Counted from the first letter of the whole stretch, positions 30,367 to 55,839 are shown. The stretch is 63,148 nucleotides of DNA, filler included, from Collodictyon triciliatum (GCA_043381765.1; 7 parts of 7 records of this genome joined end to end with filler, not necessarily neighbours in it); one strand, 5' to 3'. Numbers and translations are program-made. Notes: generated from the sequence alone by a model not told the origin.

Positions 30367-30495
30367 TGACTAAAAGGAGTATACCAACTTTCGATTGGTA
30401 AACCTGGTGTGCTAGTATCTAAGGTCTCGTCACTTTTTTTTCGCAGAGGTCGTGTAGTAGTGAAGGCTGCCAGGAGAGACCCGACAGCCTGAGTT
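30367..30495 (-). ncRNA. Candidate Fanzor omegaRNA scaffold
   Basis: Lies at the 3' end of the Fanzor ORF. 11-bp hairpin at 30464-30490, GAAA-loop hairpin at 30382-30400, and GGTCTC/GAGACC long-range complementarity. Confidence 0.6.
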
Positions 30496-32368
30496 TTTTA
30501 AAGAGAGGTGCATGCATTTTTCGAAGAATTGAAAGAACTTTCTTGAGTATATTTTTAGCGCTGTTAAAGTCCCTTGTCGAAAATGCACTTTGTTTGGTTT
30601 CTGAGCGATTGCATTCTTTACAAATGAGACATCTATGCACCTTTTTGTTTTTCCTTTCAGTTTCATATATTCCAGTTCTTTTTCGTAGTTGCAGCACATC
30701 CTGGAGGTTCTAAATTCATCTACGCTAGCTGCTCCAAAATGTTTGGATAGTATTTTTCGTAAACCTCTTCAGATTGTTGGCATAGAATGTTTCATCAGAG
30801 GCTTTCTGCTCCAGCATCCATACGCCAGTACAACATCCTTGCCAATTGTCTTTTAAATTCGGTTCATAAACAACTGTTCACTTCTTTTTGTATTAGCATA
30901 CTGTCTCCAGCTCATCTTTCGAAAAGCTACATGTTTATAAAATCTGGAAAATTCTATCTGGCATCTTGATTTCATAGACACATATTTTCGAAAATTATCA
31001 TAATCGACCGTGCATGAATAATGTTTACTCAGTTCTGCCTCTAAATCGATTAAAGATACTCTTGGTGTCTCAAACCGCTGATTCTCTTCAAAAGTCATTT
31101 GACCAAAAGAATAGCACTTTAATCAGTTGTCATGTATATCCCTGAATAATTGTACTTTTTTTTCTTGTGCAAGAGTATTTTGTGATTTTTAAAGAGATTT
31201 GGTATCAAGTCTTGTTTGGTGTGCCGTGTAACGTAATTTCTTACCTGTCTCATCCACCATGTAAACCAAATAAAACTTGCCTGCGTCCACTCCAACTATT
31301 TTTTTATTTTTGTCGCTAATAAAGATAACTGCTCTTCGGAAAGTTCATCTATATACATACATTCTTGGGTCTGTCGATTTAATTTTGAATTTTGAAATAG
31401 ATTTCTTTTCTAACAATAATGACACCGCCAAGCCATCTGTTTGTATCGTGTATGTAAAATTGTAGTCTCCTTGATGAAAACTCCTCTTCTTCATTTCAAA
31501 GAAGGTCAACTCCATAGGGTCTCTTTGCATCCTGATATACTCTTCATTAATAATGTTTTTCCAAATAATACTAATAGACCTATCAAACATGCAGTATCTA
31601 GAGTAATATGAAATGGTATATTGGTAGTTCTTATAGAGATTGGTTGAAGCAGTTTGGTTCCAACGTCCTAAAAAATGCGATTCATGTAAATCACATATGC
31701 AATACACTTGTTTGGATTGACTTTGGCGTCATATTCGATACCATTTACAATATCGCTGTGAATGATACGATACAAATGTATTTTAGCCCATTATTTATAT
31801 TGTTCCGGTATTACGAGTTTATTGAAGATGGCTTTTTTAACTTTCGTAACTCTGCCTTTTTAATAGCTTCCGTAATATTCTCATCTTTAGGAACTGTTTG
31901 ATTTATAAAGCGCAGAAACCTCTTTACATAATGCTCCTTAATTTTATTATGATAAGCTGTTAACATTTGATTCACCAAGTACGGCAATACATGAGACAGT
32001 CCAATCAATAGAAAGCGTTCTTCTTGGGACAAAAGGAATTCGAAAATCAGAGATAAAAAGTCATCATGTCATCTCTCATATCTGGTTGTTTTAATCTTGC
32101 GGGTCTATCTTGTGAAACAATTCCGACTGTCTATAAAGCGTACAAAAAACATTTCATCGATTGTTGGGAGCTTTTGTGATTTCAATATGTAACATCTTGC
32201 AAACAGATAAGTGTCGATAACCAAATTATGACACAATAAAACCGTATCGTTGATTTTGTCATAGTCATCCGCATTCTTCACGATCGACTTTAGAGATGTT
32301 TTCACATTTCGATAGTCTGGTTTTACAGACTTTATATTCTCAAACTCAAGACGTTTTCTTTTCTTCAT
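30419..32368 (-). pseudogene. Fanzor1 (eukaryotic TnpB-like RuvC nuclease), disrupted by frameshifts and stops
   Basis: YTIQTDGLAVSLL; RuvC-I IVGVDAG (D at 31285-31287); VVLAYGCWS; RuvC-II VDEFRTSRMCC; Zn finger CLICKEC; RuvC-III RDFNSAKNI; no evident introns; about 620-650 codons. Confidence 0.85.
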
Positions 32369-33309
32369 GTGAAAGTCTTTGTTTTACTTTTTCCTTTAGA
32401 AAACTACCGAATTTTCAATCTTAATAAAACTTTAATCAATTAGGCATTTAATAAAAAAAATACCTGCATAAAATCAATTCAGGTAAAGTGAAGCATCTAC
32501 CGAGACTTTCAAAATGTGCACATTGTGGCAAACAGACACATAAAGTTTTTTTTTAAGTGATTTGAGACAAGATACTGAGAGCCGATTCGGCGAGTTCGAA
32601 AGGACGGCCGTATAGCGATTGCGACTGGAAGTCAACATATCGGCTCCAAACAACATGATTACCGCTGCAAGTGTGGATAGTATGCTTTTTGAAATGCATG
32701 GTTGGTGGCAGGTTTATAGGGTGGGTTCTTTCTGGGCCAAGGCAAGGGATTGTTTGTAATCTTGAATTTTAATTATAATACTACATAAATGAACAATAAA
32801 AAAAAATTTTTTTTTATTCTTCCTTTCAATTTTGTGCAGGACCGAGGGGGGATGAAATGAACAATAAAATATAATTTGATTACATGAATAGAATGAGATT
32901 ATTAAGTATTATTTAAATTTTATTATATTATTCTAATCATACTATTATATTATTCAGGTTGTTTCTTGGATTCGTCAAAGCTTCTGCTATCGTCAATCCA
33001 GATTTAAATTGATGGTTGTCTGTGCAATAAATTGGATTATATGGGTACACTTTCCTTGTATAAAAAGTGTTATGCCTTGAAAGGGATAAAACCAAGTTCG
33101 TCACAACCTTTGTAATGAAGTTTATCCATTTACAGGCTGAATGAGACCGAAGAGAAAAAACAAAAAGAAAAAGAAAAAGAAAAAACAAAATGAAAAAAGA
33201 AAAAAGAAACGGGCGAATGAATCAGAGCAACTAATACTGAGCACTATATTCATACTTATCTTGCTACCCGTGGGTCGATGACTTCAACTTGAGGCCTTTC
33301 TATATTCCC

Positions 33310-33474
<165 letters not shown>

Positions 33475-33574
33475 NNNNNNNNNNNNNNNNNNNNNNNNNN
33501 NNNNNNNNNNNNNNNNNNTTAATTAATTAANNNNNNNNNNNNNNNNNNNNNNNNNNNNNNNNNNNNNNNNNNNN

Positions 33575-33650
<76 letters not shown>

Positions 33651-36600
33651 GCCACCGATCAGTACAAGGCCAAGCAAACTGAATGACCCAACATGAAAAC
33701 ATAGCTTCATTTTCTTCAAAAAGCGAAAGTTTAAACCTACGCAAGTTTTTTGTATTTTCCAAAAGCCAAAAGAGCTGATCGAGGGTGGGATAGTCTATCA
33801 AATGCTAGGAAATAATACTCATTATAAAAGAAACAAAAACGGACAAAAGATTAGTCTATAGTAAAACTAAAAATTATTGACTCTGTTCTTGCCTTGTTTA
33901 ATACCTGGGTTCTGTTGTTGCTTACCATCCCACAACTCAAAACTCTCATGAAACTCATTTATATAACCAAAAATCAAGAATTCAAGTATTCTAATTTTAT
34001 GTGCCAATTTGTTAGGGCTCTCATTAATACAGCAATTCGCAAGCCAAGGGGAACCGGGACTATTCGAGTCAGGGAGCATCCTGTTGCAGAGAATTTTTGC
34101 CCACTCACCCAGAATACCTAAACTTCCCAATTTTATATATATATATTCTTTATTTTATCACAATAGCTATAGCTTTAGTTTTATAATATCATTCATAGTA
34201 TACAGTGGACTCCAATCACATCTCGTGCAGCTTGTGACACATTTCATGGACATAATGGAGACTGGGTCTTTGGTCGCCCTGCTGCCCACACCACGCTCAC
34301 TTTTACGGACTCTTCCAAAGACGCAGCCTTGAAGTACATCTCATTTAGTCAGATATTTGCTTTCATGCCGGTTATTTTGATCTATCTGCTTTTCTTTTCT
34401 CAACTCAGCCTATTTTGTGGGATTCGTATATTAGTGAAAACCCCCCTTTTCTCATATGTAATAATTACATCCACTCTTCCATCTAAATTTTTATTTTTCC
34501 ATGAAGCGAAAATGTAGTAAATACAATATGCCTGGAAGTTTACTATCAATATTACAAATTAAGCTTCTCGTCGTTTCTTGTGCCTGAGAGACTGCTGATG
34601 AGTTAAGGAAAGTGAACAATTATCCTTCAATCTCCCTTTACTATAATTGTTAAGTTATATCAATCACGGTCCATATCAAAATAAATGTCAATATTTACTT
34701 TTATTTGTCATGTTTATATAAATAATGCCTTTATAACCCACACTGCCCATAGGATAGAGAAAATGGTTGGGCTGTGGCCAAAGAGAGGATAAGTTCATTT
34801 TTAATGGCTGCATCCCCTACGACTGAAGCTGTTCATTTGGCACCGATGAGGTATTAATGAAACCTTTTAACCATTATTATCCATCGAAGAAGCAAAAATT
34901 TTATACTTACCATATGACATAATTTTTTTAAAAATAATTGAATTAATCCGCGACATTAATAGATCACTCGAATACTCGCCACTGCCGAAGAGGAGAATGA
35001 AATCTGCATGATTAAAAGCGGGTATATATATTTGCTGTTATTGATATTTGCTATCGCATTCTTATACCGATTCACTTCAATTTCAAAAATCGTTTTCGTT
35101 TTCTAAATCACACATAATATCCGGCAGATCATAAGCAATAGCTGACATACTCGTACAACTTCTTCAACCAAGGCCTTAGTGGAATTGGTAAGGCTCCGAA
35201 GAAATATACTTGACTTACAATTGAATTTGTTACTACATCATAACTCGATTTTTTGAAAACTTAAACAAATAATAATACATTCCTAACAGTCTGAATATAA
35301 CTGTCCTTTCAACGCGGCACCTGTATTCACAAAATCAAGCTTTAATCAGCCGAATTCAAGTATGATACACTTTACATGACTTAATGCGCAAGTCCTTTGA
35401 TTTTATAATTCAAAGTAAGCGATAATGTCTGTTGTTATTTTTTTTATTTTTTTTTGTTATTTTGGTGAATTTTTACATCTACTTCTCACTGGGAGTGGAT
35501 GAGATTGGATGATGTATGAATTAAAAGAAACGATGTTCAAAAAAACAAGGGTGATTAATTTTCGACATTAAAAGATTTAAAGAGAATTATGATAGATTTA
35601 TTTTTAATCCATACAAAATTATGGCTACTGGATTAATATAATGATACAGGGTTGGCTCTAACAATTTCTTTTCATAGTAGTACCTGACGAACTAGTAAGA
35701 AGGGCTCATTTTTCCCTGTCTCACTGACACGGGTCTTTGCGCTCGCATTTTTTGGTCCCATTCAAGCCATTCTGTAAATTTTGGTCGTTTCATTTTTTTT
35801 GAAGAATATCTATATCATTTATATTATTAATCGAATTCTTAGCATCATGAATAAATTTGTATTTAATGAAACTCATAACTAAAATATTAACTGCACATTT
35901 CAATGAATAGTGCTACCTTAAGGCCAGATTTCACCAGCATTCTGATAGTAGAACAATATGGTTCTGATCAAATTTTATTTTACAAGAAACCTGGTACGTA
36001 TTACTCCTGAAAACAAAAAGTAAGATTATAATAGTAAATTTCATCTGACACCAAATTGATCACATGATTGATACTCAACGATAGAAAACAAAATCGCACA
36101 CACTGGATTTAAATTAGTCTAGCAGAAATATAGATAATATCAATCAAACAAACTTCTTTCTGTGCCAATACCCTTTTTTTTCGGTAAAGTGTTGAACCTA
36201 GCTTCTTCATGGACTAACTTAAAAAATCGCACTGTTTTATTCAATATATCATATTTAACATTAATTACTCATCTTCAATCGGAAACTGTTCGAACTAAAG
36301 TCATGAACAAAACTCAGATACAGTTAAAATGGATGGGACAAAGGACAAAATCCGTGGGAAAGGGAACTGTTTCGATCTACTACTTGGAGGAGGGGGTGGG
36401 GTGGTGGATTGGCGGCTCCTAGTTTTTCCGATAGTCTGAAGTAAAGGTCTAAGAACATGCGGTGGGGGTATTGGGTTGGGTTGTGTGTGGAAGTAAGTAT
36501 GTCTTTGTCCAGTCATTCATTACCAAAAATAAAAAAAAATTTATTTATTTGTAAATTTCTCTAATCAAGAGTCATGTATCCTTTTTTGTGGTAAGGAGAG

Positions 36601-39600
36601 TTAATCTTATTTGAAAACATTACCTATTTACCAAAGAAAATAACTTGTATAAATATGAATCATTTTTAATTAAAAATATCTCACTTGTAAAACTATTATG
36701 ATGATAGTATAAAATCCTAAAAATTAAGAATCATCATGGGTCTGACAATGCTAGTTATTTTATTATTCAGTTGATAGATTCAATTAGCATGAAATAAATG
36801 GAATCAATATTGTAATACTTACAATGAATACAATAATATAATCTATATATTCACTAATGAAGTTTGATCAAGATATATTGTCTGTTTAAAGCATCTGCAT
36901 CGCCATGTCGTTTGTATTTGTAATAATCTTATTATGTATCGCCTCATGAATACCAAATCAAAAAAAAAAAGCTTTAAATCACGTATCTACTAGAGAAGCT
37001 TAGTTATCTGCATACTCTTGAAATCCGTATTTTACATTCCCCCTAAACGCACTTTGAATAGAATAAAGGGAAAAATAGGTTTTTATTAATTTAATAAATT
37101 ACTGTTGCATGAAGTGTCAGTTTAAAAAAAAAANNNNNNNNNNNNNNNNNNNNNNNNNNNNNNNNNNNNNNNNNNNNNNNNNNNNNNNNNNNNNNNNNNN
37201 NNNNNNNNNNNNNNNNNNNNNNNNNNNNNNNNNNNNNNNNNNNNNNNNNNNNNNNNNNNNNNNNNNNNNNNNNNNNNNNNNNNNNNNNNNNNNNNNNNNN
37301 NNNNNNNNNNNNNNNNNNNNNNNNNNNNNNNNNNNNNNNNNNNNNNNNNNNNNNNNNNNNNNNNNNNNNNNNNNNNNNNNNNNNNNNNNNNNNNNNNNNN
37401 NNNNNNNNNNNNNNNNNNNNNNNNNNNNNNNNNNNNNNNNNNNNNNNNNNNNNNNNNNNNNNNNNNNNNNNNNNNNNNNNNNNNNNNNNNNNNNNNNNNN
37501 NNNNNNNNNNNNNNNNNNNNNNNNNNNNNNNNNNNNNNNNNNNNNNNNNNNNNNNNNNNNNNNNNNNNNNNNNNNNNNNNNNNNNNNNNNNNNNNNNNNN
37601 NNNNNNNNNNNNNNNNNNNNNNNNNNNNNNNNNNNNNNNNNNNNNNNNNNNNNNNNNNNNNNNNNNNNNNNNNNNNNNNNNNNNNNNNNNAAAAAAAAAT
37701 CCTTTTTATTCATATATTATTTTCGAATATTTTTTTGATTTATAGAATGATTTATTTATTTTATTCATTACATACAATATGGGTTCTAAGGTTTTTTGAT
37801 ATTGATGATTATATCATTTTATTAAATCTTGATATTTCGCTTTATTCCTATTCGGTCAAAATATGGCCGAGTACAAGTAGTAATGCATATACAATTTTAT
37901 TGATAATATATTCTTTTTTATCAAATATTCAAATACGAGGATTCAATTTGTCTGCATTGAAAGAAATGTAAACTAATTGAATAGCTAAACTTTCAGTTCT
38001 ATAACATCTCTTTAAATGATTGTGATTGTAAATTGAATAATATCAATAAGTTTTTTATTTTTGTATCATAAAATGAGTTTTTCTTTTTATAAACACTAAT
38101 TTTATCTTGGGTTCCAAATAAACTTAACAATCACATAGTTTAGAACTCCTCAATGAAATATAGGATTTACATAAACATAAAATGATTAATAGTCAAAAGA
38201 ATGTAATATCATATTTTTATCGATATAACTTATCAGTGCTTTGGTTTTAATTAGTATAGCTGGTTTTGATTTGATGAATAACATCAATATGGAAACTGAC
38301 ATAAGATGGTATTTTTAGGGGAGTTTGTTGATTTGAATCCACAATTGAGAGCCTCCTTATAGAGAATGAAATAATCATGATGAAACAGATAAATATATGC
38401 AAATTTATACTGAAACTGATCACGAATCATTGAACCTATTAGAGATGATACCTGGCTCTCACAAAACATATTATGTATTTCAATCAGTTGTTAATCAAAA
38501 TTTACTGAATATTAGGATGTGACTCATCGCTTGACCGCCATTTCTATACACATATGGTTGTGCTTTAAGAGTAAGCAGAGTTCTAGAACAATTAATAATC
38601 CAGCTAACTGAAGAAAGGTTTCAAATACTAAATTAAAGACTTTTAAATCCGGAACAAATTTTATCGAAAGCCATGTTCAAGGGTGATATCATTTTGTTTT
38701 CTCATATAATAATTATTCGATATTGTCAAGCAAACAGGGTTTCTTTAATAATTGATTCAATATAAATTATCTAATAATATGGCTGTTTTAACCTCTGATT
38801 GTTTGATTAACTATCGTGTAATTATATCGTTAACACTAGGATGATTCAAATAAATGTTTCTTCTTATCTTTACATTTTTCATTATGATAATGAAGAACAA
38901 TTTATACGAATCCAACAATAATGAACATTTTTCTTACAATTTGGAGCTCACATAAATAATTTTAGGAATGACTAAAGTTCTAGCCGTCACAATGATTTTA
39001 TGCAGATAATTAGATTCTCTTTTAATTATTTTAGTCATTAATCAACTCATATGAAGCACAAACTCATGATATTCTTATCTATCAAAATTCATTTATATTT
39101 AAAATTATGCGTTTTAGGTTATCGGTGAATATCTCGAGATGTTGGATAATTGAATCATTTGTGTGGTTTATTTTGAAAATGAAAGATAAGAGAGGATTAT
39201 AAATATTGAATCAAGATATATGAATGTACGAAAAGACAAGTGGTTTACGGATATGAGATTGATATATCAGAAGGAAAGTTTAAAATATAAATAAGACAAT
39301 TAATGTAAAAAATCATCAAATCCAATAATGAAAATAAATTTGTACACTGAAAAATTCATTCATTTTTTCGTACGCAATATTTTTGTGTTGATTAAAAATT
39401 TTTATAAATAATTTATGTTTTTTTCGTTCTATCAACTTTATATCGCATGAAAAATCTATAGTATTTGATTAAATGATACACAATTTAAGCTTCAATGTGA
39501 GAAATCCTTTATTTAATACTGAATATTCTTGAAATCAAGTTTGCTGAATATTCCTATGTTTGGTGAATAAAATATCAGCTGAACTGACTATATATAATTT

Positions 39601-39792
39601 TATACTGAGAAATTGGTTGCAATACGTAGGAATGTACTCACTAAACAAAAAAAGAACTGATTTCCGATGCGATAATGTCTTCGAATCGAGAAGAACATCT
39701 ATCAAAAATTCTGCAACGTGCGTCTCATATTTCAATCTTAAATAAATACATTTGTGGATTAGGCTCAATTTTAAATATATCCCAGAAATTCG

Positions 39793-42700
39793 ATGCTTTT
39801 GGTTGCCTTTGTTTCCATCGTTTTCATTGTTTCATCGGCATCCTCAATTCATCCACGTCAAAGGTACATTTTGATTTATGAATATTTGTAAAATACACTT
39901 TCGACTCAAATAAGGAAAACAGATGCCAGTATTCAAGAGATGAGTTGCTTTCCATGAAAGTCGAAGATGCATTCCAAATTCTGTTGAGCTACTACGATGA
40001 GAACTGCCCTATGTTAAAAGAGAGTGAGGATAACTTTTCAGGGTTGATGAATGGCTGGAAAGATGGAGAATACTCGCTAGAAAATGGACATGGTGATGAA
40101 TGGAATTATGGAAGAAAATTAACATCTAGTAAGGTCGACTACTACAAAGAAATTCATTCGCCAAAACGAAGTAGAAACAGAGAGCGGTGGCTGGAGAACG
40201 ACGAGAATCGAAGTGTGACCGATATAAAAACTGGGACCCAATACGAACTCCTTGTCCAACTCTATGATTTACTTGGCGGCGATAATTGGTTTCAGAACAC
40301 TGGATGGAAGAGTGAAAGTATTCCGATTTGTGATTGGTATGGGATTTCGTGTCATCAGAGCTGTTCGGATGAAGACTATAAGGTATTTTTGAAATGATAA
40401 TAATCTCTTTTGATTTCATTTTTAATAATTTTCTTTATTTTTGTAGAGCGATACATGCCCCATACTTGGTGTCTACTTGCCAGAAAACAATCTTAATGGT
40501 GACATTGAAGCTGCTTCTGTAATTTTTGAGAAGCTCCAATTGTTGGATTTCTTGGATATGAGCTACAACTTCATTTACGGAAATCTTCCAGACTTAAATC
40601 TTTTAGTCATTACATATTTGAATCTCTTTGTGAATCGAATTACCGGAACGATTCCAGACTTCCAAGGAATGCCGAATATTGAACATTTTGAGATTGATGG
40701 GAATGAACTGGAAGGAACAATACCAGATTTTTCTGGAATTCAATTAATCACAACGTTGATATTTGGTGCTAGTGAAAAAATTACAGGTATGGAGTGATCT
40801 TTTAATATTTTTTATTTAGGATTGTAAAATAGTTTTCTTTCCAGGAACTCTGCCTGATTTCTCGGCGTTGCCAAATGTTAGGATTCTTGGATTTTATCAC
40901 TGCAATATTCATGGTTTGTTTTTTATTTGAGTTAATTTTGATGGTGTAGAACCCTTTCTTATTTTTTTAATACAGGAACAATTCCGAATTTTCGCGAAAT
41001 TCCAAAAATAGAAACTATTGGTCTTTACAACAATCGAATGACTGGTAAGCTTTAACTATGTCTTAATATATTAAGTTTTTGAATTACTAATTTTTAATAC
41101 AGGAACTGTTCCAAATTTCAGCGAAATTCCAAATCTTAAAAATATAATTTTACACAGCAATTGGTTGACAGGTAATCTTTATGATTATTTTATAATTTGT
41201 ACATGAATTACTAACTTTATAACACAGGGATCGTTCCAAACTTTTGTGGCATTCCAAACGTTGAAGATCTATATCTTTATGATAATCGACTAACGGGTGA
41301 TTTCTATTGTCTCATGTATTATTGATGAAAAACTAACTTTATATCACAGGAACGGTTCCAAACTTCAGTGGAATTCCAAATGTTATAGATATTTCTATTT
41401 CCGACAATCAATTCAATGGTAAATATTGTAAACTTTTCATATATGTTCGGTGAAAACTAATATAATAATACAGGAACGGTTCCCAACTTTTGCGGCATTA
41501 TAAAAGTTAAAAAAATTACTATTTTCGACAATCGACTGACTGGTGAGAATCTGATAATTTTATGTATTATTGATGAAAAACTAACTTTATATCACAGGAA
41601 CGGTTCCAAACTTCAGTGGAATTCCAAATGTTGAAATAATTGATATTTCTGACAATCAATTAAATGGTAAATATTTATGATTAAATCATGTTATGTCGCG
41701 GGAAATAATAATTTTATATCATAGGGACGATTCCAAACTTCAGTGAAATTCCGAATCTTATATGGATTGGTCTCTCTGGAAATTTTTTGAATGGTTAATA
41801 TTCATGATTAAATCATGTTATGTCACGGGAAATAATAATTTTATATCATAGGGACGATTCCAAACTTCAGTGAAATTCCTAATCTTTTATGGATTAGTCT
41901 CTCTGGAAATGATTTGAGTGGTAAATTTTATCACTTTTTCATGTATTGTTGATAAGAAACTAACCTTTTATTACAGGCACGATTCCTAACTTTAGCACTA
42001 TTCCAAATATTAAATGGATTTATCTTTTCAACAATCAATTAACAGGTAATTTTTATTATTATTTCACTTAATATTGATGAAAGACTAATTTAATACTACA
42101 GGAACGATTCCAAACTTCTGTAAAACTCCAGAAATTTTAGAGATTTCTCTCCCTGAGAATGATTTGAGTGGTATATTTAAAGATTACTTCATATATTCAA
42201 TTTGAATAGAGTAAAGGTAAATATTCTTTCATACATCATTCACCAAAAATTAAATTTATATTAAAGGAACCATTCCAAACTTTAGTGGAGTTTTAAAGGT
42301 TGAAATAATTACTATATTTGGTAATCAATTGACAGGTAATTTTATTTTTATTTCACGTAATATTGATAAGAACTAACACAGTATAATAGGGACGATTCCA
42401 AACTTCAGTGAAACTCCTAATCTTTCATGGATTTCTCTTTCTAGAAATCAATTGAATGGTAAATTTTAACACTTTCAAGTATTTTTCAAGTAAGCTAAAT
42501 TTATATTATAGGAACGGTTCCAAATTTTGATGGAATTTTTATGATTGCAATAATTGGTCTTTACGGTAATCAATTGACAGGTATGCAATATGATGTTTCC
42601 TTGTAATTATATTATAATCTAACTCAACATTATAGGAACGGTTCCGAATTTTAATAGAATTCCAAATCTTGAAAAAATATACCTCGACAGAAACAGATTG

Positions 42701-44657
42701 AATGGTGATATCTACTTATTTTCCCTTTCTATTTCTTAGATTTTCATATTTTCTCAAACATTAATGAGTAATTTTAGGCGCAATTCCAAACTTATCAAAT
42801 TTGGGGAAACTGGAGATTTTCTCTGTTTATGAGAATCAGTTGGAGGGAGAGGTTCCAGATTTCAAAGATTGCATAAAAATCAAGGAAATAATACTGTTCC
42901 GAAATAAGTTGACAGGCACATTGCCTATGTTCAATCTGAATAATCTGATAAGACTGGATGTGAGCGAAAACCAAGTCAGTGGCTCTATACCTGATAACTG
43001 GATATTGCCTTCAATTAAATACATCGACTTGTCTTGGAATAAAATGAACGGCACAGTCCCAACCTATTTTCAGGGACTGTCAGAGCTGAAATCACTTGTT
43101 TTGTCTCACAATAAATTCTCTGGAAGCATGCCTGATTTATTCTGGAGTCTGTCGAATCTAGTGACGATTGATTTGAGAAATAACTCATTTTCAGGAGACG
43201 TTGGTGCTTTTATTGTTCCAGCTTCAGGAAGTAATGAAAATATTGATTATTTCTATGAAACTCTTTTGCTTGATGACAACCAACTCTATGGCGAATTAAA
43301 TTGGATGATTTTTAGTTACATTTTCAGCATAAAAACCCTGAGCTTGAAAAACAACAACATCACTAAACTTGATGACCTTACAAATATTTTGAGATGGAAT
43401 TCCTTTGACCTCACTGGAAATCCGATTGTTGGGAGCATTCCTGAATCATACATCGGATTTTCAAAGCTTGAGTATCTGGGATTGAATGAAACATCGATGA
43501 ATCACGGAGCAGCTAATTTTCTTCCTGATTTTATGAATTTCACGACATCTTTCAATCTCCAAGATGAAACAAAACGCTACCTTTGTCCTTCCATTATTTC
43601 GAATTCTGGTCTGATAGAGTTAGAGGTTGACTTGAATCCAGAATACTATGACTTCGAATTTTGTAAATGCTTGCCTGGATATTTCGGCTTTGGAAATAAT
43701 TGCGTTCAATGTCCAAGAGGATGTGATTGCCTTGATGGAACGTCCTTGAAATTCTGTCATGCTTCACCAAGCATCACCTCTGTGAAATCAATATTTCCAT
43801 GTCCACGTCGCGAGTCATGTGATGTGTCGATTCCAGAGAAAAATTCGAATTCAAGTGTGACGGTGGAAATCATAAACCTGTGTCAAGAGGGTTATGAAAG
43901 CAATGCCTGTTCAAAATGTCAGAATGGATACGGAAATCAAGGGAGGTCGTGTGTGAAATGCGATAAAGGAACGATTTACTCTACTCTGATTCTTGGTTCG
44001 ATTGGATTCTTTATGTTCATTTGCTATCTGTATTTCACAGAGACATCAAAATCAGGTAAATGTTACTAATTATTTCACTGTTATGATTCCTATATTAATC
44101 AGAATATTTCATTCAGCGAAACTCAGGATAATAATGTTCCACATGCAAACACTGTCGATTGTGTCTAGTGGAATAGTTCTCTCAGAAGATGCAAATAGCT
44201 TCGTTGATGTCTCATCATCCATCGGCTCAATCCAAATTCCCAACCTTTCCTGTGTCCTTGGAGTGGACGATGTGTTTGTTTCCCTGATTTTTAGTTTTGC
44301 AAGAATACCAATCTTTATCATCGTTGGCTCAGCCACGTACTATTTCGGATATGGGCACAAGCAGAACAAAGTAAGGATGAAAATACATTCCACTGTTAAT
44401 TGTTCGTAATTTATTCAGTTTCATCTTTAGTAGTACTAAATTAATTTATTTTATTTTTTGGCAGGCTGTTTTCATCACCTTGAATCTTCTATTTTTTATA
44501 TACTACTCAGTTGCAAGAGAGGTGTTTGGTGTTTTTGGATGCACCGTTTATGACGAAGGTGTGAATAAATGGTATCTGAATTTCAAGCCCTGGATTCAAT
44601 GCAGCCCAGCTTCAGATGAATATCAAAAACTGCTCGCAATAACTGTCCCAGTTTTCG
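39793..44657 (+). CDS. Multi-exon LRR receptor-like membrane protein, copy 2 (3'-truncated)
   Basis: ATG at 39793 gives MLLVAFVSIVFIVSS; same exon structure and highly similar large exons as copy 1; ends at the linker inside the TM domain. Confidence 0.88.
40845..42704 (+). repeat. Array of 15 single-LRR 69-nt phase-1 micro-exons
   Basis: Exons start at about 40845, 40976, 41104, 41228, 41350, 41474, 41597, 41725, 41852, 41977, 42102, 42267, 42390, 42512 and 42636. All are open and AG/GT-bounded. Confidence 0.9.
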
Positions 44658-44757
44658 NNNNNNNNNNNNNNNNNNNNNNNNNNNNNNNNNNNNNNNNNNN
44701 NTTAATTAATTAANNNNNNNNNNNNNNNNNNNNNNNNNNNNNNNNNNNNNNNNNNNN

Positions 44758-44816
<59 letters not shown>

Positions 44817-44937
44817 AAAAAACAAAAAACAGATAAACAAAAAACAGAAAAACAGAAAAACAGAAAAACAGAAAAACAGAAAAACAGAAAAACAGAAAAA
44901 CAGAAAAACAAAAAAAAAACTATGTTAGGAACAACCC

Positions 44938-47621
44938 ATGTTCAACTTTGTGCGAAGGACTCGAGCATTCCAGTCAATCGGGGTAGGATAAAATCAAATA
45001 TTGAATGGTCATATATTCCGCTATGAATGCACAGCCTCGCACCAACATCATCAGAAATCGTTCGAATATTTACATTTTCCTCTCTGCTTACTGAATGTCA
45101 TCTCCTTGTGTATATGTGTATACATACGTAAAGCTGCCCTCCCCAATTCATCTCAGGAACCAAAAAAGGTCTGTCAACTCAAACACACTCGTGCAATCAT
45201 ACCAACCATGGAATCAAGTGCAACACTTTGATTCTCTTTGTCGAATGGCCAGAAAAGCAATCCAATGCGCTTTTGACCTATGTCCGATTGAATCATAGAT
45301 ACATGCACAGCAGCTTGGACAGTGGTTCAAAATCAACGACTTTGGTGGATTCGTTTCAGAGGTTTCATAATTACTTGCGGATCAGCCTCACAGAAAAGTG
45401 TAATCTACGCTGCCAATACTGCATGCCTGAAGAGGGTGTCAACGTATATACTCATTTACGCATCTTTTCAGTGATTTTGAAATGAAGTTGTGATATTTCG
45501 ATGTTATCATTATTTCTTTGGGGAAAAATAGAATGACAGATATCAGAACCATCACATAACATAATTGTTTTGTGGATTAATATTCGGCTCTGTGGTTATA
45601 GCTCCAACCGAAGGACCATATCTTGAGTGCTGATGAAATAGTATATTTAGCTAGGTGTTTCGCATCTCAAGGTATTCATTCTTTCACTTCACCCTAAATA
45701 CATTTGCCCTTCTTCTTTTTTTCTTCTTCTCCTTGTCATACACTTCCTCATCTTTCAACAAATATTTTAATCTACGGGCGAATATGAAAGAAAAGGAAAG
45801 CAAGAAAGTATGGCATTGATCGTTTGATTCAAAATGACGCTCAATCACTGACTTTGAATCCAAACCTGATCCTCAGGTGTCTCAAAAATAAGGCTCACAG
45901 GGGGCGAACCAACAGTGCGAAGAGATGTGCTGAGCATTATCGAGCAGCTGGTAATGAGCGACATCCTCGTTTTCTCTCACAAGATGTTTTCCTTCTCCAA
46001 CTCAATATCTGCGTCTGTATGTAAATTAATCTTGATCTTAATAAAATAAATAATAAAATACAGAAAGGAATCGATGGAATTAATACTGTCGCTATGACAT
46101 CTAATGGAATCGCTCTGGCAAAAATGCTACCATCTTTCAAGGAAGCAGGTGTGTTGGCATTTGCTGCCAGTTTCTCTTCGAGTAAATAATTTACACTTTG
46201 TTTCGATGATATGAATGACTCTTATTCAGTGGTATTGATTATGTATGAAAAGAAAATAATCGGGATTATGAAACCGATTTTCCTATGGTCTAGGGTTGAC
46301 TCACTTGAACATAAGCCTGGATACTTTGATTCCTGCAAAGTTTGAATTCATTACCCGCCGTCCAGGCTTCCACAAAGTGATGGAGTCTATTGATAAAGCA
46401 TTGGAGGTTGTTGCTATGTTTTTTTTCTCTCTCTCTCTCTTTAATTGAATGTGCAATCATTCTTATAATAAAATGTTGACTAGGGAGAGAATCCAAACCA
46501 TATTTCAGTCATTTTTCTTCGCACTCTTTTCAATTCCTGCAGGCAGAATCATGATTTAGATGCTATTGACCTCATCAAATTTAATACTCGGGGGTTGATA
46601 GATTTCCATGAATCCTTTAAAAGTGAACGTCGTTGTGATGAAAGGTCTGAATGATGATGAAATGGTGGATTTTGTTCATTTTACCAAAGACCGAAACCTG
46701 GAAGTTCGTTTTATTGAATACATGCCATTCGACGGAAATAAATGGAATGATAAAAAAGTACAGCTTTTATTATTTTAAACAATATCTGCATCCGCGCTAC
46801 ATTGTCACATTTTCACATTATTATTCTGATGTACATGACTTCAGTGGACTTTTCTTAACTTCGCCATGCACTCATCCCAGTTGGTTCCTTATTCTAAAAT
46901 GCTGGAAAGAATAAAAGCATCGGGTTTAGAGTTGGTAAGAGTGAGAGATGAACTGAACGACACAGCAAAAAACTACAAAGTGGAAGGTTATAAAGGAAGG
47001 TAATACTGCTAGGATAGAAATAGCGATTACTCGGATAATATTCCATGACTATTTCGATAATAGCAATGTGTTAGTTAATACATGATACATATCGGCTCAC
47101 TGCCTTTTTGGTTTTATGATTTTATTCTTTATTTAGAGTGGGATTCATTTCATCCATGACTGAGCACTTTTGTGGGACTTGCAACAGAATTAGACTCACA
47201 GCAGACGGGAATTTGAAAGGTTTTTTTTATAGAAAATTTTGCAGAGCTTTTAACATTTATAGATAAAAAAAAAGAAGAATTTTTGTGGCAATATCGTACA
47301 CGTATCAGAGTATTTGAAAGAAGGAAATGATGCTAACAAGTCTAAATGCCAATAAGTTTGTCTGTTTGGCAACGAAGAAGTGTCCCTTCGAGACGTTATC
47401 CGGAATCCAAACCACACAACACAAGGTTCTTGTTTAAATAACACCATTTATTTTGATGGGTGAACATTTCTTTTCGTACGCAATTTTATTGAAAAAAGGG
47501 ATTACATTTAGAATTGACAGACATAATATCAGCAGCTGTCAAACGAAAGAAACCAAAGCACGGTGGTATGTATGATATTGCAAAATCTGAAAACCGACCC
47601 ATGATTTTGATTGGCGGTTAA
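44938..47621 (+). CDS. MOCS1: GTP 3',8-cyclase (MOCS1A/MoaA/CNX2), multi-exon
   Basis: [19 protein letters not shown] radical SAM motif, [38 protein letters not shown]-terminal RPMILIGG*; presequence-like N-terminus [11 protein letters not shown]. Confidence 0.93.
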
Positions 47622-47982
47622 GAACAATCTTATCGTACTTTGTATCTGAGTTGAAATGGATGTGTAGAGAAAAGGGGTCATGAAAATTTCCATAGCAATA
47701 AATATTAGTCAATCAAATGAAATAAAATTGAAATAATTTCTTAATAAAAGAAAAAAAGATAATGGTGGTGGTGATTATCTGAAGCTTATTTGCACATCGA
47801 AATTTGTAAGATAAAATCATGAAGAATCTTTGAACTTTGTGAAAACAAAACAAAATGGTGATACAAATTATATCTGCAATCACATGCAGTTTTTCTATAC
47901 GAATGCAAAGTACCAAACAAAAAGAACTGAAGGAAATAGCCATTTTCAAGGACGCACAGAAATCAACCAAAAAAAAATCTAG

Positions 47983-49584
47983 TGAAACGCAACAGACTCG
48001 GGTTGGTGAATGAAAATTCGGCATCATCGGTCCGCAGATTCATTCTGTTTCGCAAGTCCTCGCCTCAAATCGGGATTAGTGTCTTCTGCAATCCCAAAAT
48101 ACGTCCGAGTGTGGTAGAAGCAGAAGTTTGTGGAGTCCGTTTCTATACCACAAAAACAAAGGAACTGACGCACGTGGATTATGAAGGAAAAGTTTGAGCA
48201 TTGTCTCACATTTGCTGACTAGTCGGAATGTCCTTTTTTTTTTTTCTTCATTTTTTTAATTCTTTGTTCTTTGTTCAAAAAAATCAATTCATATATAACG
48301 CACTCCAATCTGATGAAAACAGAAGATTATCTGCGTTAATTGGAAGAAAAAAACAAGCCAATTAAATGGTTACTTATGCGAATGCAGCGCAATTGAATTA
48401 AACGAAGCATGCCTTTCTTTCAACACGATTAGATTAACATGGTTGATATTGCACACAAAAACACCACGCTTCGCACGGCAGAGGCTTCTGGGAGAGTTCT
48501 CTTGAATAAGGAGGCTTTTCACTTGGTCAAGTCGAATGCTTTAAAGAAGGGCGATGTGATTAGCGTAGCAAAGGTTCTTACAAAGTTGCCCATGAGAGAC
48601 CCAAACTGAAAACCTCTTTTATTTTGCAAATTATTTTTTTATTTTTAAAAGGGGGAAAAAAAAGAAAGAGACGAGACGAATGTAAAATAGAGTAAAACCA
48701 CACATGATTTCAAATGTAGATTGCAGCCATTATGGGAGCCAAGCAAACCAGCAATCTTATTCCTTTGTGCCACGCTGTTTCGTTAAGTTCTGTAAGTATA
48801 TCACACAGGATTTAAACAGAAAAAAAAAGTCTAATATTCAAAATTAATAAAGTAATTAATTTATTATTATTATTATTGCTTGTATGAACATATGTTTATT
48901 TTACCTGCATTACATCAAGCTCGCCTCTGAATTATCTTGACTTTGTGTCTGAAAAGATTACTCCATCTGTCCTATTTACATATAGCTATCATTCACGCAA
49001 CCATTCTTTCATTGCTGTTCTCTCATTCTCTTTTTGTTTGACTCCGGATATCCAATCTCATTGAACTGTGAATTCGGCACATGATTTAGAAGCCATCTGT
49101 CATCTCACACACAAACACAGACACAGACACAAACACAAACACAAACACAAACACTCTTTTGCGGCGACCGTGCTGTGCATAGGTGACTTGTGCAGTTGGT
49201 CTTGATGACTCGGACCATTCTGTTGTTGTTCGCTGCAGGGCACAAACGGCTGGGCAGACTGGGGTGGAGATGGAGGCTCTGACAGCCGCGTCGGTTGCCT
49301 GCCTCACAATCTACGACATGGTGAAGGTATGTCTCCCAGCTGCTGCTGCTCTCTTTGACTCTCCCCGGGTGCAGTCTTGGGAATACCATCGCTCACTTTC
49401 ATAGCACGACTTGGAATATTTCTCTTGTGAAATGCATATATATATAATTAGAACTAATAATCATTATTGGTTCTACAAGGCTGTCTCAAAGGAGAGTGTG
49501 ATTGCAAATATACGGTTGGACTCCAAGACTGGTGGCAAAAGCGGCGATTATATTCGTGCGGGATACACAATTAGCTCTGATTAA
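47983..49584 (+). CDS. MOCS1: Cyclic pyranopterin monophosphate synthase (MOCS1B/MoaC/CNX3), multi-exon, no evident ATG of its own
   Basis: [70 protein letters not shown] at 49582-49584. Confidence 0.9.
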
Positions 49585-49903
49585 TAAACGTATCCTCTTC
49601 TGGGTTCGTCAAAATAGTTCAAACAAGATTTCTCTGGGGGAATGGCTGCTACATGACTTTGGTGCGAGTTTGGTCGAAGAGAGATATGTAATGCACATCT
49701 CAAACCAGTGAAGCATCGCCGCGCAACCCAAAATCAAAGAATTGAACAGAACGAGACTATATGACATAAAGGAATTATCGTGTTGGACGCACCCACTCGA
49801 ATTGAAGGCCCAAATATGAACTCTAATCTATTATAGAGCCGGTCAGTTTCGCACGGTCCGGTGACATTTATTTCTTCCTTTGCAGTCTCCCTGTTGTTTT
49901 TTT

Positions 49904-50293
49904 TTAAACGCCTGAGACGGTTGGGGTGTTGACTTGAGGGCCTGTGAATTTTTTTAAAGAGGTAAAGGCTGTTGAGAGATTGCGGGCAAAGCGAATGGGC
50001 GCAGAAATCTTTTTTTTTAAAAAAAAAAAAACAGCAAATAGAAGAATAAAAACTAAATTTTCCATCGCATGAAAATTTAAAAAAAGAAAAAAGGCGACAA
50101 AGAGAGAAAAGGAAAGATATTATTCACTAAGGAGTAATATATAATCGGTCGGGAGTATGAAGATGTCTTTTGCATTTCTTCACTGACCTGCAGGTCGAGG
50201 TACGAACTCTGGTAAGACTTGATTCATTGAATTTGCCTCGTAGATGCGTCCGTCTTTCATGACATGAGAAAGCTGCAAGCAAGTAGACGATTT

Positions 50294-50386
<93 letters not shown>

Positions 50387-53300
50387 TTTCGATTGTGATT
50401 TGAGAGGAATGGAAAGAATTCTATCAATCGATGGACCAAAAGAGCATACATATTGCACATTGAAGATGTCATCCAATGGGCTTTTGCTGGCAGGATAAAT
50501 GACAAGATCACCAAGTTTGCCGACTTCAAGAGAGCCGATATACTGCGATTTTGTGAAGGAAATGCAAAGGTTAAAAAAAAGACATTCAGATGATTTCCTT
50601 CGACGAGTCAACCGAATGGGTGTATTCAGATGTGCTGGTTATCAACCAACATATATATCCATCTGGCTGGATGCTAAAACTCGAGGCAGAGAACCTTGTC
50701 AAGTCCAAGCTGTCTCGCTCCTTCGAGGGAAGCCGTCTTCAAGACTTGAAGCGGAGACATTCCACCTTGGTACATCATAAACATCTCCCAATGGTACGCG
50801 ATGCCCTGTGGATGTATTTAGATAAGCTCACGCAATAGTGTAAAATATGTGCACACCTCATTCGAAAAGGATGATGAAGTCTGGGTTTGATGAGTATAGA
50901 CACATCAAGTCTTCCTGCGACAACATAACGAAATGTGCAAAGCAAACGCATACGAAGCAGACAAACCTGTTGCTGGCCATGCGCACCGCAACCAACGGGG
51001 ACGCCCAACTCGCTTAGTGCGCGAACAGAAGCCGTCACCTTGAAGTGGTAGTAATCTTCTGGGGCCTATGTTGTAAAGATTTTCTGTCAGATTTGATTTC
51101 CAGTTCACTTGGTATAGTTAAACAATTGATAGATAACACAATTATTATCATTTTTGAAAGAGAGAAAAGAGAACAAAGAAAAGAACTTATGGATGATTAA
51201 TGCCTTAGCAGCAACGCGACGAACAGAGCGCGGATAGAGGCTGCTGAGAGGAACAAACTGCGTCAGTCTCTCGTTGGCATACACCTCATCCACCTGATAC
51301 CAATAGTGTTCTCCCCTTAAATCACCATAGCAGACGCCCTAGTAAAGAGATGTAAACATTCCCACTCCGGACATCAATAAACACACGAATTACGAGAGAA
51401 GGACAGCGTGGTAGTGGATACTACCGACAAAGGTTTTTTTGTAAAAGAAAATAATCAAAACAGCATAACCCTGTCAATCACACCAAATAACTTTCTTCAA
51501 ATCAAACCAACATCTCAAGTAAATATGCCCTTTAAACTGAAAGAAGGAAGCGAAAAGAAAAATCACAAGGGTTGGGTTGTATCCAGTTCCACTGCGAGAA
51601 AAGAGTTCCTTCACATCGTTGTAAAGCGGTGCCACGGGCAAATTATGCTCGACAGTTGTGTGCCCATCCACAAGCATGTTCAGATTCCATTGGAAGTTCA
51701 TTCCTCCCTCTGGAACGACAGCCTAGACGCAACAATCATTTTTTGAAACACATAAATACATTTTTTCAAACTTAAAAGCGTACAAACTTTATATAAAAAA
51801 AATAGATAAACGAACGACTAGAACTAATAACTTCATTCATAAACTTTTCATTACAGGAAGTGCGAGTTTAAATTTTGCACCGCCTTTTTTTATATAAAAA
51901 AATATCAAATTGTATATGACGCTGTATCGAAGTCTTCAATATGATGGCAAAATCAAACCATGGATAGGTTTCGAGCAACTTCGATAATGCGTTGGCGTGC
52001 AGAGCGACATGGCTGTTGGTATGACTTGACAGACCAGGCACCGTAGGACTTCAGGCGCTTCATTGCTGATGTGACCCAAAGAAGAATTAAAAAAAACAAA
52101 ATTATGCGGAAATATAAAAGCTGCCAAAGGGGGGAAAAAAGTACTTGGAGATTCAGAAATGGTAAGGGTATTTATTTGCCAATCCATTATCTATTATTGA
52201 AAGAATACCTCTTTCAGCGTCCCGGATACTATTGATTTCGCATCGAATATCACCTCCAGCTCCATAAATAATAGTGCCGGTACTGGAAATAAATGCATAT
52301 ATAAGAAAGTTAATTGCTTTGGTTTTGATGGAAATCAACTGCGTCTGGATGTGCTCATTATCAATCACAACCACCGAAACAGTGGCTGAGAAAGGAGAAT
52401 AGAGTGCCTATGAAAGAAAATGTGGAGGAATAAACGTTAAGACTGAAAGGTGACAAAGAAAAAGAAACCTGAAGAGACGCGGCCCTGTTTTCTTTCCAGA
52501 ACGAACGAGCTCTGCATCTGCGAAGGTAGCCAAGGTATCAGATGATGGATTATGAAGGGTGGTGACTCCAAAAGCAAGATTGGCCAGATATTCCCAGCTT
52601 GAACGGACTGTATATCTACGCCAGATAAAAATGTATCACAGACAGTTTAGTGCGAGCAGATGAATGAATCTTTAAATGTATGTGATGCAGACAATCATTT
52701 CAAAGAGTGTTTTGTGCATGTGCGTGATTCTTGATGCCTTTCTTGCGCGCCAGTATGCTCGTATTTGGTTACTACCTGCTAGTTCCGCTCCAGTGCGCGT
52801 GTGTGTCAATATATCCTGGAGAGACAGAACCGCCAGCGACGTCCAGGATTTTGGCGTTGGGAGGAATGCTCACTTGTTGGCGCGGTCCAAGTGCCGTGAT
52901 GACTCCGTTTTCAATCACGATTCTGCCGTTGGCGATGACATCACTCTTTGAGTTCAATGTGATGATATTGGCATTGTCGATGACTATGGGAGTTGACGAC
53001 AGGCCGGTGGTGGATGTGACAGACAAATCGGTGACTCTACCATGGCAATTTAAGTTCAGAGTCATGTATACGTTTAATTATTTTGCTTTTATTTTTAATA
53101 AAGGCTCGTAGAGTAATGTAAAAAACAAAAACAAAAAAGTTTGATTGAAATATTTACTTAAACTCGGAACATGGCAAAGAGATTAGAAAATTAGTGGTAA
53201 TTATTGATGGCCTTATTTTAAGCGCTTTTTTTCCTTCAAAAACTTACCGAATATATGGTTTTGCACATTGGAGATTGTACTCATTAGAGTCACTTGAACC

Positions 53301-53632
53301 ACTCTGGCAGGCACGAATGACATCAGATACTGTGACCTCGAATAAATCTTTTCCGAGAAGCCAACGCAGAGTCTTTCCATCGTTGGAGAATCGTACAACT
53401 TCGCCTCCTGTACGATACGAGGTTAAGTATAATAATAGTAATCAAAACCGTGGTCATTATAATGAAGGAAAATATACTGAATGCGGTGTTTCTGCTGCCT
53501 CATATAAAAAATCCAAAAGCAAATACTTCACTTAATTACCATTCTCTGAGAGTCGAATTACCCCGGGCGATGCGATTGCTAAGTTGCGGTTGGTATAAAA
53601 AATGTAAGTCTTTTGATGTCAGAATGAGTAAC

Positions 53633-53686
<54 letters not shown>

Positions 53687-55440: not shown

Positions 55441-55514
55441 CAAAGTTTAGTTCATTTAGCAGGATGAGGAATCTAGTCATTCATTCCACATATCTTGGCT
55501 CTTTTTTAAAAAAT

Positions 55515-55839
55515 GTTTTTTTGTTTTTTTTTTGTGTTTTTGTTTTCTTTTGTTTTCTTTTGTTTTTCTTTTGTTTTTCTTTTGTTTTTCTTTTTTTGTT
55601 TTCTTTTTTGTTTTCTTTTTTGTTTTCTTTTTTGTTTTCTTTTTTGTTTTCTTTTTTGTTTTCTTTTTTGTTTTCTTTTTGTTTTTTTTTTGTGTTTTTG
55701 TTTTCTTTTGTTTTCTTTTGTTTTCTTTTGTTTTCTTTTGTTTTTCTTTTGTTTTTCTTTTTTTGTTTTCTTTTTGTTTTCTTTTTGTTTTCTTTTTGTT
55801 TTCTTTTTTGTTTTCTTTTTTGTTTTCTTTTTTGTTTTC
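55515..55839. repeat. T-rich degenerate (TTTTGTTTTC)n repeat at contig end
   Basis: Direct inspection. Confidence 0.85.

Follow-up and report, generated by a model that had tools for sequence, protein, structure and literature searches.

A fifteen-exon leucine-rich repeat cassette array in a receptor-like gene of Collodictyon triciliatum and signs of its evolutionary turnover

Leucine-rich repeat (LRR) domains assembled from small exons have been described in several eukaryotes, and we compare with them here an array of fifteen 69-nt exons (cassettes), one LRR each, in a receptor-like gene of the free-living freshwater protist Collodictyon triciliatum. The array lies in a stretch of DNA of 63,148 nt (hereafter the window) that holds two copies of the gene, A and B. 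In the vertebrate glycoprotein-hormone receptors and LGRs, which are conserved receptors, a run of small in-phase exons encodes about one LRR each, and in lampreys and hagfish the germline VLR gene is incomplete and is filled somatically with cassettes from flanking donor banks that have no splice sites. The sequence-only reading, an earlier reading of this DNA, had named the one-exon-per-LRR shuffling of Ectocarpus ROCO proteins as a precedent, and the literature confirms it: ROCO genes of the brown algae Ectocarpus and Saccharina carry 72-nt LRR exons in phase 2, with exon shuffling, positive selection and multiple LRR-exon splice variants (Zambounis et al. 2012, PMC3341825; Teng et al. 2024, PMC11378527). 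The LRR genes of Tetrahymena, thousands in number, consist of exons of exactly 90 bp in phase 2; their lineage-specific expansion has been ascribed to unequal crossing-over, and the youngest arrays have long introns and are associated with a long interspersed nuclear element (LINE)-like element (Xiong et al. 2019, PMC6564038). Human NLR genes have strictly modular 171-bp exons that encode two ribonuclease-inhibitor-type LRRs each, and the skipping of one such exon in NLRP3 has been found experimentally (PMC6642158). Finally, gonadotropin-receptor genes place in-phase LRR exons upstream of a membrane-domain exon (Koo et al. 1991, cited in PMC11378527).

For the C. triciliatum array we regard germline evolutionary turnover of a symmetric exon-intron module within a receptor-like ectodomain, with the remaining protein conserved, as the probable explanation. 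The cassette shuffling proposed by the sequence-only reading holds in this evolutionary sense, as the two copies carry 15 and 8 cassettes, only their terminal cassettes are orthologous and some duplications are younger than the split of the copies.

The cassettes and the gene that carries them

All 15 of the consecutive 69-nt exons noticed by the sequence-only reading were recovered at the positions claimed, each with AG before it and GT after it:

40845-42704, plus strand: LRR cassette array, 15 exons of 69 nt, one 23-residue LRR each, with phase-1 introns
40845-40913, 40976-41044, 41103-41171, 41228-41296, 41350-41418, plus strand: cassettes 1-5
41474-41542, 41598-41666, 41725-41793, 41852-41920, 41977-42045, plus strand: cassettes 6-10
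42102-42170, 42267-42335, 42390-42458, 42512-42580, 42636-42704, plus strand: cassettes 11-15
42171-42266, plus strand: the intron after cassette 11, 96 nt, without the CTRAY motif; its second half starts GTAAAT and resembles a whole short intron

The cassettes share the consensus GTxPNFxxIPxLxxIxLxxNxLx. Every cassette closes with a G that opens a Gly codon, the other two bases of which lie in the following exon, so that all cassette introns are in phase 1. In gene A, 13 of these introns measure 53-62 nt. The other two are the 96-nt intron listed above, possibly a scar left by the loss of a cassette exon, and the one that follows cassette 15 (73 nt). With both copies taken together, 14 of 23 cassette introns have a CTRAY branch-point motif 16-17 nt from their 3' ends. 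Open AG-N69-GT segments, 15 of which were observed, occurred on average 0.77 times and at most 4 times in 200 shuffles of the same stretch, and a scan of both strands of the whole window found such LRR-like exons at two sites only (40845-42704 on the plus strand and 4009-4953 on the minus strand). Tandem Repeats Finder gave periods of 124-127 bp in array A, which correspond to exon plus intron, and the nhmmer profile matched each cassette exon of gene A with E between 1e-6 and 7e-19.

The 23 cassettes of both copies all fit the pattern G-T-[IV]-P-N-F-x-x-I-P-x-[LVI]-x-x-[IL]-x-[LI]-x-x-N-x-L-x with a period of 23. At 22 residues a single cassette is too short for Pfam to recognise: 10 of the 15 were tried and none gave a match at E <= 0.01, the one LRR_8 match having an E of 0.078. 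We assigned them to the LRRs because of their consensus, their profile likeness to positions 40646-40710 in exon 3 of gene A (E 4.5e-9) and the colinear alignment with full-length relatives.

The sequence-only reading had described a conserved scaffold with strongly varying beta-strand x positions, and the entropy profile of the 15 cassettes of gene A bears this out. Shannon entropy was 2.28-2.57 bits at positions 13, 14, 16, 18 and 19 (the x of LxxLxLxxN) and 0-0.57 bits at G1, T2, P4, N5, F6, I15 and N20, and it peaked at 8 and 21 too. In LRRs the concave beta-sheet is lined by the x residues of LxxLxLxxN, and strong variation at them between the repeats of one protein is a general LRR property; the variability alone is no sign of a diversification system. 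Cassette 1 (GTLPDFSALPNVRILGFYHCNIH) is divergent, with 41-55% nucleotide identity to the other cassettes and counterparts, recognised by eye, in the distant homologues P0001 and P0132. It is an old LRR, outside any recent hypervariable set. We also observed N-x-S/T sequons (NFS or NFT) at cassette positions 5-7 in eight of the 15 A cassettes and in four of the eight B cassettes; the ectodomain of gene A has 22 N-glycosylation sequons, and three of the A cassettes carry a Cys at position 7.

The cassettes form the centre of gene A, whose exon borders, like those of gene B, were set at GT..AG sites taken from the sequence:

39793-44657, plus strand: gene A, with its 3' end cut by the contig end
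39793-39863, plus strand: exon 1, ATG and a signal-peptide-like hydrophobic segment, 71 nt, the same length as exon 1 of copy B
39923-40382, plus strand: exon 2, 460 nt as in B, N-terminal region ending in a Cys motif like that of an LRR N-terminal cap
40447-40786, plus strand: exon 3, first LRRs without internal introns, ending in phase 1; Pfam LRR_4 and LRR_1
42778-44055, plus strand: large exon, nine fixed membrane-proximal LRRs, Cys-rich stalk and first membrane helix
44117-44370 and 44465-44657, plus strand: exons 20-21, membrane domain, with the frame running into the contig end at 44657

When gene A is spliced, its frame stays open over 1210 codons (0 stops), and all 20 of its introns are GT..AG. 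In the exons flanking the array, Pfam scores reached 57.7 bits for LRR_1, 56 bits for LRR_8 and 47.2 bits for LRR_4. All three families were found in the large exon, together with DUF7630 below the cut-off in the Cys-rich part, and the LRRNT_2 match in exon 2 was weak (E 0.006; 17.3 bits, under the cut-off of 20.7 bits). The truncation of the gene is an assembly effect and not biology. With its signal-like segment, LRR ectodomain, Cys-rich stalk and multi-pass membrane domain, the product looks like a protein of the cell surface, and the sequence features thus lend support to the surface-receptor-like product that had been proposed.

Gene B has the same layout:

5810-1386, minus strand: gene B, on the first contig of the window, complete, 15 exons, 1177 amino acids
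4009-4953, minus strand: cassette array of gene B, eight LRRs of 23 residues, with seven separate 69-nt phase-1 exons

Its 14 introns are all GT..AG and its frame is open to the stop codon. Residues 1-19 form a hydrophobic signal-like segment (Kyte-Doolittle mean 2.28), and the ectodomain is followed by a Cys-rich region with 15 Cys and then by at least seven hydrophobic segments. The first cassette LRR (4953-4885) is joined to exon 3 without an intron. Tandem Repeats Finder gave a period of 124 bp with 7.3 copies for array B, and its cassettes matched the nhmmer profile with E between 2e-13 and 3e-19. When 4885-5152 (minus strand) is set against 40447-40913 (plus strand), copy A has two extra in-exon LRRs and the divergent cassette 1; the extra LRRs have counterparts, by eye, in P0001 and P0132, and gene B probably lost these N-proximal LRRs that A kept. 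A profile of the 23 cassettes found no further cassettes, whether intact, degenerate, truncated, intronic or antisense, on either strand of the window, a search that covers ~11 kb per contig, including ~6 kb upstream of A and ~5 kb upstream of B.

The gene belongs to a family with members among transcriptome-derived proteins of other eukaryotes. The 433-residue large exon was 36-42% identical over 99% of its length to four of these (P0001-P0004), and an exhaustive profile-free search added further full-length relatives, including P0124, P0125, P0128 and P0132. The layout of LRRs, Cys-rich region and multi-helix part is common to the relatives, and P0001 has a NIDO domain in addition. Residues 25-1209 of the spliced protein A aligned with residues 40-1184 of P0132 at 36.8% identity (10 gap openings, 1188 columns), and the alignment runs through the cassette block (residues 291-635). 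Consecutive LRR spacings of 23 residues numbered 0-18 among 20 relatives, 18 in A and 11 in B; since this count differs among relatives, the cassette block is the length-variable part of the family. We also noted that P0012 and P0013, isoforms of one transcriptome gene in the wider family, have the same LRR, Cys-rich and membrane parts and are 91% identical overall, differing in an N-terminal region of non-LRR repeats (~87-370) outside the LRR array. Scans of metagenome contigs found no related genomic loci.

The evidence on the fold comes from the homologue P0218 and not from the cassette block of the window. An AlphaFold2 model of P0218, based on an alignment of 18 sequences, had a mean predicted local distance difference test score (pLDDT) of 81.8 and contained an LRR solenoid, a Cys stalk rich in beta structure and, within residues 357-683, nine long helices. 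Residues 1-258 matched plant receptor ectodomains with VIA Z 20.6-21.9 and a root-mean-square deviation of 2.3-2.9 Å over 217-229 residues, and Foldseek likewise returned plant LRR receptor ectodomains at E ~1e-8; structure searches with the whole 730-residue model were filled by LRR matches to residues 1-263. In Pfam, the membrane domain of P0001, P0003, P0004, P0218 and the copy B exons matched no family, including 7tm_1, and neither the exons of the window nor P0001, P0003, P0004 and P0218 gave a match to a ROC or COR domain. The only families above the cut-off were those of LRRs and the NIDO domain of P0001, with DUF7630, 7TM_transglut, EptA_B_N and TMEM208_SND2 below the threshold. The gene product has no kinase domain, its C-terminus being the membrane domain. 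This domain (2672-1386, minus strand, in gene B; residues 357-683 of P0218) shows conserved motifs, DVFGxFGC and GFLYxxY among them. When the membrane domain of P0004 was used in a word-based search, only the query itself came back, and a near-length search returned one protein, P0134 (294 amino acids, 62% identity).

Turnover and selection in the two arrays

Homology between A and B reaches past the gene (35191-40680 in A against 10437-4919 in B), and the flanks are 80.9-82.1% identical over stretches of ~0.7-3.0 kb that include upstream non-coding DNA. Five orthologous introns of the two copies were identical at 299 of 361 positions (83%), which we took as the neutral benchmark. In the flanking coding sequence the synonymous divergence (dS) was ~0.34, and the ratio of nonsynonymous to synonymous divergence (dN/dS, omega) was 0.30 in the N-terminal part, 0.19 in the fixed LRRs, 0.17 in the Cys-rich part and 0.10 in the membrane part; because these values lie at 0.10-0.30, both A and B are constrained genes.

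The arrays show a different picture. The only cassettes orthologous across the copies were A15 and B8 (exon 81%, intron 86%, tree support 98/100). In the colinear register of A8-14 with B1-7, exons were 67.7% and introns 64.8% identical, against 69.7% and 65.7% for all-against-all comparisons, which is no better than other offsets. Within the arrays, several pairs exceeded the benchmark of 83%, both among introns (A7/A8 95%, B3/B4 89%, B1/B4 88% and A4/A6 85%) and among exons (A8/A9 91%, B3/B4 88% and A5/A7 87%), and for this reason several duplications of an exon together with its intron are placed at or after the split of A and B. The youngest duplication in array A is the following, with tree branch support of 98/99:

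41575-41926, plus strand: cassettes 7-9, for which Tandem Repeats Finder gave a unit of 127 bp, 2.8 copies and 85% matches

Mean identity within a copy was 78.3% for exons and 71.7% for introns in B1-7, and 67.0% and 63.7% in A. Since introns were duplicated together with exons, the unit of change is the exon-intron module, and the pattern suggests that the units arose by tandem duplication or unequal crossing-over, perhaps together with gene conversion, and makes an origin by retro-copying unlikely. The codon of Thr2 is ACG in 10 of 14 A cassettes (background in genes 21%) and that of Asn5 is AAC in 10 of 14 (background 31%), and such a uniform synonymous choice in the 5' half of the cassettes fits shared descent or homogenisation. 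We also considered that B might be A minus 40680-41760, a simple deletion taken from BLAST joins; this was rejected, as the remaining interior cassettes are not orthologous.

Four metagenome runs (three freshwater and one subsurface) were compared with 37700-44657 and gave contigs of 151-366 nt at low depth and 85-100% identity. Joints on single contigs within the array, which skipped 658 and 130 nt or returned by 611 and 94 nt, had short sides at 85% likeness. They are indistinguishable from paralogues or other organisms and support no inference.

Selection on the cassettes was estimated by the Nei-Gojobori method on the nine closest non-overlapping cassette pairs, which we chose ourselves and which comprise 18 of the 23 cassettes (A1, A2, A3, A10 and B7 were left out). 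Omega was calculated with the dS of each class and with a pooled dS of 0.36, the latter with intervals from a bootstrap over cassette pairs:

Scaffold codons: omega 0.22 with class-specific dS; 0.22 (0.13-0.33) with pooled dS
Other x positions: omega 0.94 with class-specific dS; 0.64 (0.27-1.31) with pooled dS
Exposed (concave-face) positions: omega 0.87 with class-specific dS; 1.30 (0.82-2.34) with pooled dS

As a control, the exposed positions of the nine fixed LRRs, compared between A and B, had an omega of 0.12 over 45 codons. The scaffold residues of the cassettes are under purifying selection, and the concave face of the cassettes, which evolves at a near-neutral rate, has thus escaped the constraint acting on the LRRs next to the membrane. 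The sequence-only reading had expected dN/dS to be raised at the exposed positions: it is raised relative to the scaffold (0.22) and to the fixed LRRs (0.12), and its interval of 0.82-2.34 includes 1.

Competing explanations and the rest of the window

Under the turnover that we favour, the 15 mini-exons would be ordinary, probably constitutively spliced exons of one gene, encoding the central, length-variable LRR block of a receptor-like membrane protein with the predicted order of signal peptide, N-terminal cap, LRRs, Cys-rich stalk and ~7-9 membrane helices. The DNA unit that recurs every 124-127 bp, a 69-nt exon with its intron of ~55 nt, would be gained, lost and possibly homogenised in the germline over evolutionary time, with tandem duplication or unequal crossing-over of neighbouring units as likely routes and gene conversion as a possible one. 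Each event would add or remove exactly one turn of the LRR solenoid, and the frame would be kept each time because the unit is symmetric, with phase 1 on both sides and a length divisible by three. The concave-face residues of the cassettes, where a ligand may bind, drift or diversify about neutrally. Conservation holds for the nine LRRs next to the membrane, for the stalk and for the membrane domain.

Several points weigh against this explanation. The maximum-likelihood tree of the 23 cassettes was poorly resolved, with 13 of its 20 inner branches open, and it left the cassettes of A and B unseparated (6 changes each, against a mean of 6.8 after shuffling); because of this, an independent expansion in each copy rests on the identity values and the introns and not on clades. 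One interior pair across the copies, A7/B2, had an exon identity of 84%, above that of the flanks, with neighbouring introns at 66% (downstream) and 73% (upstream). The cassette omega comes from 45 comparisons of exposed codons among chosen pairs. A and B lie on different contigs and could be paralogues, homeologues or the sequences of two strains, and the comparison carries no timescale. Finally, the inclusion of all 15 exons in the transcript is an assumption.

Arrays A and B might be alleles or strain variants of one locus, in which case 15 against 8 cassettes would be a standing structural polymorphism. Their homology does extend well into the upstream non-coding DNA, they lie on separate contigs, and the freshwater metagenome contigs that match parts of the gene at 85-100% indicate that related variants exist in nature; a dS of 0.34 and a non-coding divergence of ~18% are nevertheless far above the usual divergence of alleles, as judged from general knowledge, and we hold this explanation to be unlikely. 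It is also rather improbable, in our judgement, that the symmetric phase-1 cassettes are skipped or chosen in alternative splicing, so that one gene yields many receptor isoforms. All 15 exons have the length of 69 nt and the phases 1-1 that this formally presupposes, and the splice signals are uneven, CTRAY at -16/-17 being absent from 9 of 23 cassette introns, among them the ones that follow A1, A7, A8, A11, A13 and A15. Precedents are the splice variants of Ectocarpus ROCO genes (PMC11378527) and the skipping of one 171-bp LRR exon in NLRP3 (PMC6642158). Against this, all 15 cassettes carry canonical GT..AG borders, and the full-length spliced product is colinear with full-length transcriptome homologues, so that inclusion of every cassette gives a normal member of the family. 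The only isoform pair of one gene that was compared, P0012/P0013, differs outside the LRR array; skipping in frame at the level of noise, moreover, is expected for any such gene and would show no function.

A somatic diversification of the kind seen in VLRs, with cassettes copied or recombined in individual cells, would find a modular, recombination-prone layout and, in the conserved 5' halves of the cassettes (GTxPNFxxIPN), homology for recombination. We consider it extremely improbable, given that the germline gene is complete and open, that each cassette has its own splice sites and that the window holds no spare, truncated, intronic or antisense cassettes elsewhere. An assembly artefact or a decaying pseudogene is very unlikely too. 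In this fragmented assembly microsatellites stand at contig ends, and gene A is interrupted where its contig stops; however, the cassette exons are 41-91% identical and thus easily assembled uniquely, copy B shows the same organisation independently, and 0 stops in 1210 codons, intact splice sites and a scaffold omega of 0.22 speak against a pseudogene. The most far-reaching possibility is a purpose-built, diversifiable recognition module in an uncharacterised receptor family, in which frequent recombination of cassettes, inside each copy and from one copy to the other, and in-frame skipping would together create a repertoire of concave faces, with the conserved membrane-proximal LRRs and membrane domain as a constant signalling chassis. 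We give it a small chance. If true, it would provide a repertoire for variable ligands (prey, pathogens or mates) in individuals and populations of this protist, and an innate-immune-like or allorecognition system independent of those of animals, plants and brown algae; the immune-like or prey-recognition role put forward by the sequence-only reading is speculation.

The window is a chain of separate contigs with six N44-TTAATTAATTAA-N44 linkers between the pieces, and spacing between features of different pieces is therefore meaningless:

1-11093, 11194-22285, 22386-33474, 33575-44657, 44758-55839, 55940-61462, 61563-63148: pieces
11094-11193, 22286-22385, 33475-33574, 44658-44757, 55840-55939, 61463-61562: linkers
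9056-9309 and 37134-37690: additional runs of N inside pieces

Five of the pieces are ~11.08-11.09 kb each, and the piece ends are mostly microsatellites or homopolymers. The 15-cassette array sits on the fourth piece (33575-44657). Around gene A the GC content is 32-34%, that of an AT-rich eukaryote with introns of ~55 nt. An Rfam scan of the window found no RNA family, and no transposon was noticed by eye in the lists of open reading frames upstream of gene A, no dedicated transposon search having been made.

Other genes were also observed in the window:

22330-27561, minus strand: giant open frame of 1743 residues without introns, broken off at a contig end, almost all WD40 repeats
45100-49400, plus strand: multi-exon gene of molybdenum-cofactor biosynthesis, with a MoaC domain at 49183-49404 (Pfam E 2.5e-15)
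15920-16354, minus strand: open frame with a poly-Asn/His run of ~90 residues
19378-19884, plus strand: exon of a lipase-type alpha/beta-hydrolase (Abhydro_lipase, E 9e-19)

Of the WD40 frame, 1000 residues were tested, and Pfam marked 23 WD40 stretches in them; the frame has several perfectly repeated 42-residue blocks near its end, and it is another fast-duplicating repeat gene. In the gene at 45100-49400, a radical-SAM CxxxCxxC motif was recognised by eye near 45400-45470, and the one MoaA-like exon tested (46602-46778) had no Pfam match; the gene content suggests a MoaA-MoaC fusion, presumably of the eukaryotic MOCS1 type.

Comparison with known LRR exon systems

A full-text literature search, with supplements outside it, found no description of this receptor family or of a 69-nt phase-1 LRR array, which is weak evidence of absence. 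Among described systems, the array shares most of its design with the brown-algal ROCO genes: one LRR per exon of constant length in the same register (from the G of GxxPxx to the end of LxxLxLxxNxLx), symmetric phases, duplicated exon-intron units, non-colinear loci and variation on the concave face. It differs in having 69 nt and phase 1, in its LRR/Cys-rich/multi-pass product without a ROC-COR GTPase, and, within the window and on both strands, in the absence of the inactivated or antisense LRR exons that lie in introns of the Ectocarpus loci. Positive selection is reported in the brown algae, whereas the interval of omega at our exposed sites includes 1.

With the Tetrahymena genes the array has in common tandem LRR exons of equal length, a single intron phase and exon-intron units visible as DNA repeats, but its exons are of 69 nt in phase 1 and its introns of ~55 nt. 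As in human NLR genes, exon borders fall at the same point of each repeat and permit skipping in frame, although the NLR is a cytosolic sensor and the product here a receptor-like membrane protein. The resemblance to the vertebrate glycoprotein-hormone receptors and LGRs extends over the whole order of LRR mini-exons, Cys-rich hinge and multi-helix membrane domain, and the ectodomains of LGR4 and LGR5 were among the structural matches of the P0218 LRRs (Z 18.3-18.6). Pfam found no rhodopsin-type seven-transmembrane signature in the membrane domain of P0001, P0003, P0004, P0218 or the copy B exons. Unlike the LGRs, the C. triciliatum gene has LRRs of the plant-like GxIPxx type and an array that is turning over.

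Plant LRR receptors (GSO1, TDR/PXY, PEPR1, PSKR, FLS2 and MIK2) gave the best structural matches and share the GxIPxx motif, and they may share an LRRNT_2-like cap, for which the match lay below the cut-off; they differ in a repeat of 24 residues instead of 23, and the product here has no kinase domain and ends in a multi-pass membrane C-terminus. The VLRs are similar in using LRR modules as units of diversity, and a hagfish VLR was among the P0218 structural matches (Z 18.6), but here the germline gene is complete and its contigs hold no donor cassettes.

Taken together, the gene architecture is of a known evolutionary kind, and neither a new diversification mechanism nor an immune system is shown. 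The near-neutral concave face of the cassettes, set against the omega of 0.12 in the fixed LRRs, is the clean and testable mark of a receptor in which a variable head sits on a constant chassis, and the membrane domain falls outside the curated families, which makes this an unstudied class of receptor. Should regulated cassette choice or high allelic diversity prove true, the gene would offer a tractable model for the diversification of recognition receptors in a unicellular eukaryote. The exon length of 69 nt and the phase 1 set this array apart from the other systems and point to convergent evolution of gene design and not to common descent, and C. triciliatum is a third microbial or algal lineage, with a new protein architecture, in which LRR domains are built from uniform, symmetric and duplicating exons.

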